From IMG/VR virus record IMGVR_UViG_3300042691_028844, positions 1 through 64,000 of that record: a DNA stretch of 64,000 nt. One strand, written 5' to 3'. Source of the stretch: a virus. Shown here in pieces: positions 1 through 2,605 of this stretch (its first letter is position 1; each line of letters begins with the position of its first letter). The notes below the pieces were generated by a model. That model was not told the origin of the DNA, did not search any database, and saw only the letters and a list, made by a program, of their open reading frames with translations. A program made the translations under genes and the position numbers.

Positions 1-196
1 CTCGACGGTGAAGTTGATCATTAAGCTGGGGAATGACAGAGGCCGGTTCCCTGTCATCGGACACAGCCGGCCCCTCGGCCTCCGGCTCGGCCAGCAGTGC
101 GCGGGCACGTTCCAGTAAGTCATGGTGCTTCATATCCACTGCGTAGGTGTTAAAGGCAGCGTGAAGCTCAGCGCACAGTGCTCGGAAGTCAGTCAT
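1..196 (-). CDS. Modular mini-gene, family B (MTDFRALCAEL...RARALLAEPEAEGP); truncated by window start
   Basis: Manual translation from ATG at 196; shares N- and C-blocks with 574-900 and 1522-1953. Confidence 0.8.
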   Translation of the reverse strand, partial: MTDFRALCAELHAAFNTYAVDMKHHDLLERARALLAEPEAEGPAVSDDREPASVIPQLNDQLHRR

Positions 197-581
197 CGAG
201 TTGCTCCAGTGCGCGGCGGATGGTGTCGCAATCTTCTGTTGCTATCAGCGAAGGGACTGATCGAACTGCTTGTCTTTTAAGGGCGTCAAGCGCCCGCTCC
301 TTCAAGCTCGGCGGCTTCGGGCGGCGGGCGGCGCGGAGCCACTCACGCATGTCTTCGGCCATCTTGGGATCTATGCAATTTGGAATGTCGTATCGGGCAT
401 AAAGCACCTGACAACACGCCTCCAGCTCCTGGTCGGCACCCCAGCGGGCGGATTGGGCAATGGCGTGCTCGGAAGCGCTGCAGTAATCCTGATGGTGGCC
501 CTCGGTGAGCCACTGCTGCACCAGCTCAGGCGGTGGGGTGATCGGATGCTGCGCGGCGGCAGCGGGGGAGTGGTCAGTCAT
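189..581 (-). CDS. Modular mini-gene, family A (HPITPPPELVQQW...RWGADQELEAC...RRPKPPSLKE...DTIRRALEQL)
   Basis: ORF track; paralog of 2213-2605; start/stop overlap neighbours. Confidence 0.85.
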   Translation of the reverse strand: MTDHSPAAAAQHPITPPPELVQQWLTEGHHQDYCSASEHAIAQSARWGADQELEACCQVLYARYDIPNCIDPKMAEDMREWLRAARRPKPPSLKERALDALKRQAVRSVPSLIATEDCDTIRRALEQLDD

Positions 582-900
582 TGGTCACTTCTTCGATGGT
601 TGATACGCAATGCCGCTGAATGATCAGCTTGTGGGGCCCATCTTGCGAGTAGGTTTGCAGGTAGTGATTACCTTCTCTTTGAACATCTTCCAAGCTGTTG
701 GCGGAACCACCGGCTTGCCAATCACCCTCGGCATCGTGCAGTTCCCAGGCGTAGTGAATGTCATCCTCTTCTGGCTCGGGCTGGGCCAACAGTGTGCGGG
801 CGCGGTCTGCTAGCGGGGACATGCGAATCCTTCCGGCTGGAATACCAGAATCCAGCGCATCAACAAGCTCAGCGCACATGGCGCGGTAGTCGAGGGTCAT
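574..900 (-). CDS. Modular mini-gene, family B (MTLDYRAMCAEL...RARTLLAQPEPE) with unique C-terminal domain
   Basis: ORF track; ATGA overlap with upstream gene. Confidence 0.8.
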   Translation of the reverse strand: MTLDYRAMCAELVDALDSGIPAGRIRMSPLADRARTLLAQPEPEEDDIHYAWELHDAEGDWQAGGSANSLEDVQREGNHYLQTYSQDGPHKLIIQRHCVSTIEEVTND

Positions 901-1121
901 GGCTGAGCCTCCAGCTCGGTGGCGATGAGTTGGATCTGCGAACAGTCCACACCGCGTACGCCCAGGATTTCATGGCCGAGTTGGCTGTCTAAAGCCCGCA
1001 GGGCGGCGGCAAGGGCCTTGCGGTCGTAACGCTGATGGTTGAAACCACAGGCATCAAGATTATTGAGAGCAGGAGTGGCGGCATCCAGCACCGCCTGCGC
1101 AGCGGGGGAGAGGTCAGTCAT
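897..1121 (-). CDS. Modular mini-gene, family C (MTDLSPAAQAVLDAA...AAALRA...IATELE)
   Basis: Internal ATG at 1121 within ORF 897-1241; paralog of 1287-1529. Confidence 0.8.
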   Translation of the reverse strand: MTDLSPAAQAVLDAATPALNNLDACGFNHQRYDRKALAAALRALDSQLGHEILGVRGVDCSQIQLIATELEAQP

Positions 1122-1294
1122 GGCTGACCCTCCAGCTCGGCGGCGATGAAGCCAGCGCACAGGTGCGCCCGCTCGGGGTTCATGGTTGCCACCCACGACA
1201 GCAATACGTTGTCTGGGATAGGCGTGGTGTGCCGGGCGCACTGATGCTTTTGGCGGCAGTCAATGCCGTGGCAACGGGCGATGTCGTTAAGCAT
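1118..1294 (-). CDS. Small Cys/His-rich protein (MLNDIARCHGIDC...C) ending in the family-C IAAELE block
   Basis: Internal ATG at 1294 within ORF 1118-1384; coupled to both neighbours. Confidence 0.7.
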   Translation of the reverse strand: MLNDIARCHGIDCRQKHQCARHTTPIPDNVLLSWVATMNPERAHLCAGFIAAELEGQP

Positions 1295-1529
1295 CCGCAC
1301 TTTCCAGCTCGGCGGCGATGGCGAGGAATTGAAGGCGCACAAATCGCTTGGCATCCCAGCGTTCGAACTCTTTAAGAGAAGCAACGTCGGGTGCTGGTTT
1401 ATCTAACACCACCTGATTCGCAGCAGCCCGCAGGGCGGCGGCGGCAATGGATTCTGGAGTGTCAGTGGATTGCCAAGGCTCAAAAGCAGCGTCACGTACC
1501 GCCTGCGCGGCGGGGGAGAGGTCAGTCAT
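1287..1529 (-). CDS. Modular mini-gene, family C (MTDLSPAAQAVRDAA...IAAAALRAAA...IAAELE)
   Basis: Internal ATG at 1529 within ORF 1287-1592. Confidence 0.8.
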   Translation of the reverse strand: MTDLSPAAQAVRDAAFEPWQSTDTPESIAAAALRAAANQVVLDKPAPDVASLKEFERWDAKRFVRLQFLAIAAELESADA

Positions 1530-1953
1530 TGGAGCCCTCCACCTCCCCCGGCTCCGGCACAGGCGCGGTGACGGGACGGCCGCAGCGAGCAAGGGCGGCG
1601 CGGGCGATAGTCAGCACATCGTCTGCACTCATCGGCACAGACTCAAAATCCCATGGCGAAGTTGACAAATATCCGAGCGCATTTGCTGCAACTCGCAGCA
1701 GCTCCTCATCCGTAGGCCCCTCCGCCACTGGCTCGGTCACAGAAGCTCGTCCAGCTTGGTATGCACGAGTAGCAAGTACGTCCCACCAATCACGTCGTCC
1801 ATAAGGGAGTTCGTCAAGAGTGGCAGGAAAATTAGACGCTTCGGCTTTCCAGCGATCAACTTGGTGCCTAGTTGGAGCGAACTCCTCTTTTTCTTCTGGT
1901 GAAAAAACGGGTTCATGCCAAAGCTGTTGGCGAACGGAAATGTACTTAGTCAT
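1522..1953 (-). CDS. Modular mini-gene with EPVAEGPTDEEL...ARAALAR blocks
   Basis: Internal ATG at 1953 (MTKYIS) within ORF 1522-2010. Confidence 0.75.
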   Translation of the reverse strand: MTKYISVRQQLWHEPVFSPEEKEEFAPTRHQVDRWKAEASNFPATLDELPYGRRDWWDVLATRAYQAGRASVTEPVAEGPTDEELLRVAANALGYLSTSPWDFESVPMSADDVLTIARAALARCGRPVTAPVPEPGEVEGSND

Positions 1954-2036
1954 TGGTAAACTCGGGGGTGAGTAGGGCGTGGGCGTGGGCGGACGGTTGG
2001 GCGGGCGCACAGGGCGCGGTAGTCGGGGTTAGTCAT
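1950..2036 (-). pseudogene. Internally deleted/frameshifted family-B remnant (MTNPDYRALCA...)
   Basis: 28-aa ORF with family-B N-block; a C-block-like AHAHALLTPE reads in another frame. Confidence 0.55.
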
Positions 2037-2045
2037 TGATTCTCC

Positions 2046-2207
2046 TCACTCAGATGCCAGCAGGCAGAAAATCTGCGCTGGCTTATTGTCATAAAGCCGT
2101 TCACATGCCTGCCACTTTTGGGGGATCCACCACCAAGCTGTTGCAATCATTAGCAAAAGCACTAAGACAATGGCGCCAAGTGCTGTGTAGTCGTTAAGGC
2201 TTTTCAT
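2046..2207 (-). CDS. Small single-TM membrane protein (53 aa)
   Basis: Manual translation MKSLNDYTALGAIVLVLLLMIATAWWWIPQKWQAC...; below ORF-track cutoff. Confidence 0.7.
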   Translation of the reverse strand: MKSLNDYTALGAIVLVLLLMIATAWWWIPQKWQACERLYDNKPAQIFCLLASE

Positions 2208-2212
2208 GGTAG

Positions 2213-2605
2213 TCAGTCGGTGAGTTGTTCGAGGGCGCGGCGGATGGTGTCCATGTCTGCAAGGAATGCCGTTGGGTCAGGTCCGAGAGCAAGGTGCTCC
2301 AAGGCATTCAGCGCCTGCTCCTTCAAGCTCGGCGGCTTGGGACGGCGGGCGTGGCGGAGTTTGTAAGCAATGCCGCTCCATCCGTATTCCGTAAGCCATT
2401 CCAGGCACGCCTCCAGCTCCTGGTCGGCACCGAGAGCGTACTCCTGGTCGGCACCCCAGCGGGCGGCCTGGGTGGCGATGTAGTCGATGTAATCTCGCCG
2501 CCCACCGGGATCCGTAGATAGCGAAGCCGGAACATTGCTGGCAGCGGCTCTCCACTGCTGCACCAGCTCAGGCGGTGGGGTGATCGGGTGTTGTTGGTTA
2601 GTCAT
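2213..2605 (-). CDS. Modular mini-gene, family A, with internal GADQE duplication
   Basis: ORF track; paralog of 189-581. Confidence 0.85.
   Translation of the reverse strand: MTNQQHPITPPPELVQQWRAAASNVPASLSTDPGGRRDYIDYIATQAARWGADQEYALGADQELEACLEWLTEYGWSGIAYKLRHARRPKPPSLKEQALNALEHLALGPDPTAFLADMDTIRRALEQLTD

Follow-up and report, generated by a model that had tools for sequence, protein, structure and literature searches.

Mosaic mini-genes with conserved coding blocks: a tandem array in picocyanobacterial phages that is probably reshuffled by recombination

Introduction

This paper deals with a tandem array of mini-genes in a cyanophage from a lake, represented by one IMG/VR virus contig of 86,580 bp (IMGVR_UViG_3300042691_028844) that is recorded as linear and rated 100% complete by CheckV. 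Bases 1-64,000 of this contig are the window that was analysed, and genome positions refer to the whole contig. The closest described design is that of the gp38 adhesins of T2/T6-type phages, where glycine-rich motifs (GRMs) separate hypervariable segments (HVSs) which are described as interchangeable between phages and as a population-wide library (Trojet et al., 2011; PMC3157838). The likeness consists in a small phage protein with conserved motifs alternating with hypervariable segments, an arrangement that is seen in 90-94 genes of family A of the array. There is no sequence relationship, the blocks of the array are not glycine-rich, and the array is formed by tandem genes of several families with conserved junctions. 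Moreover, it adjoins primase and DNA polymerase genes and not a tail fibre gene, and its seven core products match no Pfam entry at E<=0.1, the only significant PHROG match being phrog_32006.

At its gene borders the array recalls the promoter-early stem-loop (PeSL) cassettes, which are reportedly also the subject of work by Comeau et al. from 2014. PeSL cassettes occur in the hyperplastic regions of T4-type phages and are short repeats bordering small non-essential genes; insertion, deletion and replacement are driven by recombination between these repeats (Arbiol et al., 2010; PMC2839356). Comparable border variation was found here: gene number and order vary among 83 loci, payload-free remnants occur and the array of the nearest relative (contig L021) differs. 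PeSLs are intergenic promoter-plus-terminator units, whereas the array genes overlap by 4-8 nt without an excess of promoters or terminators, and the repeats of the array are coding and also intragenic. By analogy, the array appears to function like the gp38 design and, at the gene borders, like PeSL shuffling, yet it belongs to neither class.

In the modular theory of lambdoid phages short conserved border sequences guide the homologous exchange of modules. The conserved sequences of the array differ from such borders in being demonstrable, numerous, oriented and partly intragenic and in carrying a translational coupling signal. In Neisseria pilE/pilS and other antigenic-variation families variable minicassettes with short conserved segments between them undergo segmental recombination, which gives mosaics. 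In contrast, the array has no single expression locus with silent donors, every copy having its own start and Shine–Dalgarno (SD) sequence, and its setting is a virus population and not one cell lineage. We know of no dedicated initiating element for the array. From diversity-generating retroelements it is set apart by linkers that are unequal in length and unalignable, unlike the equal-length template and variable repeats of such elements, which differ at adenines, and from integrons by the lack of a match to an IntI-type tyrosine recombinase and of attC-like repeats (one weak inverted pair in 1-2700). The entry phrog_32006 matches the family A genes A1 and A2 but gives neither a function nor an array nor a block design, and literature searches, with supplementary files outside their scope, yielded no description of these families or arrays.

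We suggest that this locus is probably a hyperplastic accessory region of picocyanobacterial phages, a tandem array that ends the replication module and whose genes are shuffled where recombination acts on conserved coding blocks and on gene junctions. The recombination part of this reading is well supported though not proven.

Architecture of the array

The array comprises about 22 minus-strand genes over ~5.8 kb and extends across both contig ends. Nine of these genes lie at 1-2605, where the sequence-only reading, an earlier interpretation of the same DNA, had located the whole array; this placement is correct as far as it goes, but the array is not confined there and continues beyond the window at genome 83,404-86,580 with ~13 further genes. 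The contig ends fail to join in frame, a family B gene being truncated at base 1 and the C-terminus of an unassigned gene at 86,580, and for this reason sequence between the two ends may be missing. The region was rightly called GC-rich: the guanine-plus-cytosine (GC) content of 1-2000 is 0.598 against 0.43-0.56 in other parts of the window, the far part has 0.59-0.62, and in a comparison over both contig ends the array shows 0.56-0.63 vs ~0.48. Its repetitiveness is illustrated by 78 distinct repeated 14-mers in 1-2605, while 100 shuffles gave a mean of 0.03 (maximum 1) and an equally long control region of genes had 0. The features of the near part are as follows.

2213-2605, minus strand: A1, family A gene, 130 aa (phrog_32006, E 5.1e-27, and alignments)
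Within 2213-2605, minus strand: the blocks of A1, which are HPITPPPELVQQW, ARWGADQE..ELEAC, RRPKPPSLKE and IRRALEQLTD
2046-2207, minus strand: TM, passenger gene, 53 aa, with a single hydrophobic helix
1522-1953, minus strand: AB, 143 aa, N-terminal half family-A-like, ending in EVEGSND and the stop (BLASTP to A1 40% over 65 aa, E 1e-9)
1287-1529, minus strand: C1, family C gene, 80 aa, with the blocks MTDLSPAAQAV, AAALRAAA and IAAELE
1118-1294, minus strand: D1, Cys-rich gene, 58 aa, with the terminal family-C-type block IAAELEGQP
897-1121, minus strand: C2, family C gene, 74 aa, falling from its AAALRA block on within a 604-bp 99% repeat
574-900, minus strand: B1, family B gene, 108 aa, with an identical copy at genome 85,739-86,065
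189-581, minus strand: A2, family A gene, 130 aa, with the family-C-like start MTDHSPAA (phrog_32006, E 8.3e-24, profile positions 4-112/116)
1-196, minus strand: B2, family B gene truncated by the contig start (B1 to B2 46% over 41 aa, E 6e-7)
408-1010, no strand: copy one of the 604-bp repeat, 99.2% identical to genome 85,572-86,175
1085-1155, minus strand: example of a junction module, with ...IAAELEGQP and stop, GGAGG 7-8 nt ahead of ATG, stop/start overlap and then MTDLSPAAQAVLDA
297-326, minus strand: family A block 3, RRPKPPSLKE, holding the 12-nt word CCGAGCTKGARG

BLASTP and alignments assign four copies in the array to family A, seven to family C and three to four to family B. Single genes are the Cys-rich gene D, the one-helix 53-aa gene, a Cys-rich 64-aa gene (CC...CPSC) and two further open reading frames (ORFs) without relatives (ORFans). 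Besides passenger ORFans, the array genes represent a minimum of four families confined to phages: A (phrog_32006), B, C and D. The likely start of D1 is the ATG at 1294, which gives an 8-nt overlap with C1, and D1 has a homolog in Synechococcus phage S-H1 (39% over 49 aa). A2 falls within the 604-bp repeat as far as its ELEACC block. Homologs of AB are found in 6 loci; a homolog of TM, 94% identical, comes after a family A gene in the contig L019, and TM is present in three more loci.

All ORFs and motifs named in 1-2605 by the sequence-only reading are present, with an ATGAC start in seven of the nine genes. The DNA-level repeats it had listed also stand: 510-545 and 2552-2587 are identical at 36/36 nt, 1090-1138 and 1498-1545 share 88% identity, and the copies of TCCAGCTCGG(C/T)GGCGATG are real. 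The proposed swapping of blocks between families is borne out by the Cys-rich ORF that ends in IAAELEGQP and by the family A gene that starts with MTDHSPAA. The assignment of ORF 1522-1953 partly to family B has to be given up, as it matches A by BLASTP and not B at E<=0.01, only a short EGP stretch being B-like.

The scaffold of each family consists of short conserved blocks with unrelated, length-variable linkers between them. In family A four blocks and three linkers were resolved in 90-94 genes, the linkers measuring 5-33 aa; both A and C can be aligned end to end with a fixed order of motifs. Two types of C-terminal junction recur, ...IAAELEG-x-N(D/G) and ...IRRALEQLDD, each followed by the stop, and in both GGAG lies 7-10 nt ahead of the next ATG, inside the upstream C-terminus. 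The stop overlaps the start as ATGA or ATGACTGA (4 or 8 nt), usually as ATGACTGA, and therefore the C-terminal ND before the stop and the N-terminal MTD are fixed. The third part of the junction is the conserved N-terminus of the downstream gene. All 22 listed gene starts are ATG and most are preceded by GGAG; on other contigs a 4- or 8-nt overlap occurs in 130 of 194 distinct junction contexts and an SD-like word at 95 of 182 junctions. Judged by these sequence features, i.e. the overlap and a ribosome-binding site within the upstream coding sequence, the array would be a translationally coupled operon.

Some words are strongly oriented. Over 727 kb of loci the coding strand has 109 copies of CCGAGCTKGARG and the other strand two, the word encoding PPSLKE in family A (78 times) and, one frame over, AAELEG in family C (17 times); its sites in the window are 297-326 and 1287-1316, and also 2305-2336. 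GAGCTGG was seen 17 times with 0.9 expected and is missing from the opposite strand (zero). Family A block 3 includes AAGGAG.

Upstream of the array, and sharing its strand, are the genes of a family A DNA polymerase and of a D5-type primase-helicase. Promoter-like sites number 2 vs 1.2 expected, both inside a 52-aa gene upstream of the array, and no minus-strand terminator-like site was detected at the array. We infer that it is expressed together with the replication genes.

Conservation of the blocks at the DNA level

Codon choice is position-specific in 94 distinct family A genes and likewise in 71 family C genes. In family A the dominant codons are CCA for Pro16, CCG for Pro17 and CCC for Pro88; CTG for Leu53, CTC for Leu82 and TTG for Leu93; and GCC for Ala44/45 and GCG for Ala55. 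Four-fold sites of family A blocks differ by 0.36 over 1,200 between-contig pairs compared with ~0.68-0.73 at saturation, and linker DNA shows an identity of 0.546, shuffled linkers having 0.518. ThyX served as control in 36 contig pairs that share both genes: conserved ThyX columns differ by 0.70 and family A blocks by 0.41, family A being below ThyX in 34 of the 36 pairs at similar amino-acid identity. The block codons are common to the marine isolates, S-RIP1 with 44% GC included. Hence there is support for the expectation of the sequence-only reading that blocks are conserved at synonymous sites too, in contrast to linkers, copy number and gene order, which vary greatly among unrelated cyanophages; uniform divergence and saturated synonymous sites in the blocks, which that reading had named as contrary outcomes, were not seen.

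The 1,123 blastn high-scoring segment pairs from other contigs reach a depth of up to 106 on blocks and stay below 5 on linkers. Among metagenome contigs the phage is covered ~6x and the bins with family A blocks 500-975x (X1) and 60-264x (X5), and many block-to-block joints as well as loose ends at block edges are found.

Two conceivable causes of the block conservation were rejected. Overlapping-frame coding does not explain it, with alternative frames open in only 0 to 9 of 94 family A genes per frame. Nor does junction RNA structure: nine folds gave inconsistent z values from -2.3 to +0.2, and an SD/anti-SD hairpin appeared in only 2-3 of them.

Distribution across phages

Family A is present in 5 of 5 matching phage records, all of them from Synechococcus phages, namely S-H1, S-CBS2 and S-RIP1. 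These are three morphologically unrelated genomes, and in each of them family A lies beside genes of replication or nucleotide metabolism. In S-CBS2 the order is A, C and an unrelated gene, joined by ATGACTGA; its family C gene was detected by a custom hidden Markov model where tblastn had failed, and tblastn of C1 and B1 against the phage records gave nothing at E<=1e-3. Within IMG/VR at least 560 places with family A were confirmed, and an exhaustive profile search produced 2,652 representatives of 50%-identity clusters, of which 1,803 match at E<=1e-10. In 83 loci A, B and C share one strand but vary in number and order; B and/or C is found next to A in 57 of them and partial family A copies in at least 10. 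Passenger genes recur in other arrays with 46-94% identity. The nearest relative, L021, has a primase that is 62% identical and carries at the matching site an inverted array of four A/C genes. In this contig (L021:3614-10254) the array stands between ThyX and the 195-aa gene, on the ThyX strand.

The GC content of the array is ~0.59 regardless of whether the contig has 0.43 or 0.67, and it exceeds that of the flanking DNA in 66 of 90 loci. A host origin of this GC-rich DNA was considered and rejected: 185,579 species genomes contained only 12 matching loci, all on contigs of metagenome-assembled genomes of mutually inconsistent taxa, which are most simply read as mis-binned phage.

Footprints of recombination and proposed mechanism

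One end of the 604-bp repeat falls in AAALRA, a family C block, and the other in the family A block ELEACC; past these ends the linkers are unrelated and the following blocks match again. Its breakpoints fall in blocks whether the two copies are two loci or two variants. Two payload-free remnants were found, MTDLSSAARALEALDD and IDLSPAAALEQLDD (each followed by the stop), in both of which a start block is fused to an end block. In family A more than one linker-2 cluster is joined to each linker-1 cluster (14 of 14), and one type of linker 3 was seen with two distinct types of linker 1. Chimeric combinations, which the sequence-only reading had required to exist elsewhere, do exist: in S-H1 MTEQHPITPPPEL is fused to an unrelated body immediately ahead of a full family A gene, and P0024 is a cross-family chimera of a family B start, a WDGH domain and a family A end, P0010 being a further case. 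Among the longer relatives there are also A-A and WDGH-A-C fusions. The WDGH domain (PF25311) in P0010 and P0024, both from other contigs, is a passenger fused between array blocks; a literature search on this domain returned nothing relevant.

An independent run, X7, contains a 736-nt piece with 0 differences that spans the right breakpoint of the repeat at 1010. Array pieces of this run (544-1279 and 1285-1606) show 0 differences, and several pieces from the primase region and upstream (3359-7909) differ by ~3%, e.g. 8/242 nt. These small numbers hint at array segments shared between slightly diverged strains.

We infer that crossovers in the blocks caused the mosaics. In the proposed mechanism blocks and junctions would be the crossover points for homologous or microhomology recombination. 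Within one genome this would lead to duplication and also to deletion, which can go as far as payload-free remnants. In co-infections it would permit exchange between phages at blocks and junctions. Linkers, half-genes and whole genes could in this way be re-assorted from a pool common to otherwise unrelated phage lineages.

Evaluation of alternative explanations

Several observations weigh against reshuffling by recombination. A strict four-gamete set was found neither in 94 genes nor in the 134 parsed of 213, and a shared linker 1 with differing linker 2 is explicable by unequal rates. Linkage disequilibrium (LD) of synonymous block variants is low even within a block (r2 0.032, null 0.012) and non-monotonic, with 0.025 at three blocks apart. 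Within-contig paralogs differ by 0.376 and between-contig ones by 0.361, the within value being lower in 7 of 15 contigs; concerted evolution within genomes was on these figures rejected as general cause of block identity, and the contig of this phage is an exception with 0.13 within vs 0.33 between. A site-wise constraint on nucleotides accounts for the LD, four-gamete and paralog results at least as well as the spread of block haplotypes would. Because LD is near nil, a four-gamete set is lacking and within- and between-contig differences are about equal, the block codon pattern looks site-wise or star-like, unlike a few spreading haplotypes. Selection at the nucleotide level could produce it, and so could a pool that recombines freely across lineages or a recent radiation accompanied by horizontal spread. 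Profile searches recognised no recombinase, integrase or reverse transcriptase in the genome: PF00078 (reverse transcriptase) gave 0 matches, the control search matching 3 of 14 control genomes, PF00589 (tyrosine integrase) gave 0 with 14 of 14 control genomes matched, and RecT, ERF, RecA and AAA_24 gave none. Finally, the data are mostly short-read metagenome contigs, in which shared blocks can lead assemblers to wrong joins. The copies of the 604-bp repeat sit 405-408 nt from the two contig ends, and because of this position and of ends that do not join in frame they may be two population or strain variants instead of two loci of one genome. Of the recombinational cassette system proposed by the sequence-only reading, block conservation and chimeras stand, and no support was found for a dedicated system; its crossovers inside blocks agree with the mosaics but have to face the LD and four-gamete results and the fact that other nucleotide constraints could keep the blocks.

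A different account, which partly overlaps with recombination at the blocks, holds that the nucleic acid of the blocks is itself a signal, be it a ribosome-binding site, a cue for translational coupling or pausing, an mRNA structure or a site bound by a protein; the blocks would then not be substrates of recombination and the mosaics would be a by-product. It draws on the GGAG/GGAGG within the C-terminal blocks at 7-10 nt from the next ATG, the SD-like words at about half of the junctions, the AAGGAG of family A block 3, the strand bias of the two-frame CCGAGCTKGARG and the excess of GAGCTGG; LD near zero, together with the equality of within- and between-contig differences, fits site-wise selection, and a marine phage of 44% GC makes identical codon choices. 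Yet the junction folds are inconsistent, the internal blocks HPITPPPELVQQW, ELEACC and RRPKPPSLKE are distant from any start codon, alternative frames are not open across the genes, and breakpoints, payload-free remnants and chimeras at blocks are left unexplained, so that we regard this account as rather unlikely. A bolder variant, to which we give only a small chance, is that the blocks are selected as DNA and form an oriented recombination 'grammar' of words (GAGCTGG, CCGAGCTKGARG) used by a phage or host function to join cassettes, which would turn the arrays into a population-wide and programmable combinatorial library of small early proteins. If true, words would be common to non-homologous families even where read in different frames, and the array would be a viral counterpart of minicassette antigenic variation in which a coupling signal in every joint would get any new combination expressed.

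That the mosaics are mainly artefacts, short-read assemblers having joined phages or strains at shared 26-60-nt blocks and the 604-bp 'duplication' being two strain variants, is suggested by the metagenomic origin of this contig (G000) and of nearly all loci, by the position of both repeat copies ~405 nt from a contig end with ends that do not join in frame, and by Logan contigs that break at blocks. This is nevertheless quite improbable, as the clonal isolates S-CBS2 (A, C, unrelated gene) and S-H1 (chimera with A start beside a full A) share the architecture, block conservation and codon patterns are independent of assembly, and the X7 piece bridges the breakpoint at 1010 without a difference. 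Even less credit is due to ordinary tandem paralogy, i.e. small helical proteins with motifs under purifying selection, whose loops evolve fast via point mutation and indels and whose blocks have no special role in recombination. The end-to-end alignment of A and C with fixed motif order and the lack of four-gamete cases speak for it; against it stand block four-fold sites far below saturation with linkers at the shuffled level, ThyX being saturated in the same contig pairs, a non-uniform profile between two C-B-A units (99%, then unrelated, then matching), and the presence of payload-free remnants and cross-family chimeras. A dedicated diversification machine, be it a diversity-generating retroelement, integron-like cassettes or pilin-type programmed gene conversion, is extremely improbable: the array resembles one only in its overall pattern of constant and variable stretches and of cassettes in tandem, while reverse transcriptase and tyrosine integrase were not found in the genome, inverted repeats in 1-2700 are limited to a single weak pair (22 nt, 73% complementary), linkers vary in length (5-33 aa) and not through point changes, and every copy has its own start codon.

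Products of the array and neighbouring genes

For the seven core proteins (A1, A2, B1, C1, C2, AB and the Cys-rich ORF) no Pfam match was obtained at E<=0.1. The only significant PHROG match among array proteins is phrog_32006, listed with function unknown in PHROGs v4; NCBIfam and PADLOC gave no match, a PDB profile search none (best E 1.2), and matches in the ESM Atlas are restricted to viral 'hypothetical protein' clusters. The suggestion of host-interacting or anti-defence effectors found no lead in Pfam, NCBIfam, PADLOC, PDB or the ESM Atlas, nor did the fused longer forms provide one besides the WDGH domain. It is a guess, with somewhat less than an even chance, that the products help to take over the host, to counter its defence or to compete with other phages. 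The Cys-rich 64-aa passenger gene with CC...CPSC (genome 83,683-83,877; L004:3683-3877) encodes a protein with the look of a zinc ribbon; it has no PADLOC or NCBIfam match and no homolog among the fetched loci.

Upstream of the array the following genes are found.

2610-2768, minus strand: 52-aa gene
2773-3360, minus strand: 195-aa gene
3353-6211, minus strand: D5-type primase-helicase

The primase-helicase protein includes a Ser/Thr-repeat stretch, and at 4807-5073 of the window its gene shows a spike in metagenome-contig depth of 112 (X1) and 143 (X7), neighbouring bins having ~6. The replication gene block contains a minus-strand 514-aa protein with a von Willebrand factor A domain (15145-16689). 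Outside the window, ~2 kb from the far end of the array, there is a plus-strand ORF of 75 aa (genome 81,094-81,321; L004:1094-1321) whose motif ...DVDHKDGNPLNN...N... we take to be HNH-endonuclease-like.

Significance

Small early genes of unassigned function fill phage genomes, and the origin of that diversity is an old question. The arrays offer an abundant natural case, with thousands of variants in podo-, sipho- and S-EIVl-like cyanophages from lake, estuarine and marine waters. Coding blocks and junctions are fixed as DNA while the intervening sequence turns over, and the design keeps each recombinant translatable, which provides a concrete and testable model for modular evolution at the sub-gene scale. 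The synonymous constraint, set beside a core gene that is saturated in these genomes, also poses a clean quantitative puzzle. The arrays represent a large protein pool on which diversifying selection probably acts, in phages whose hosts are primary producers of global importance.

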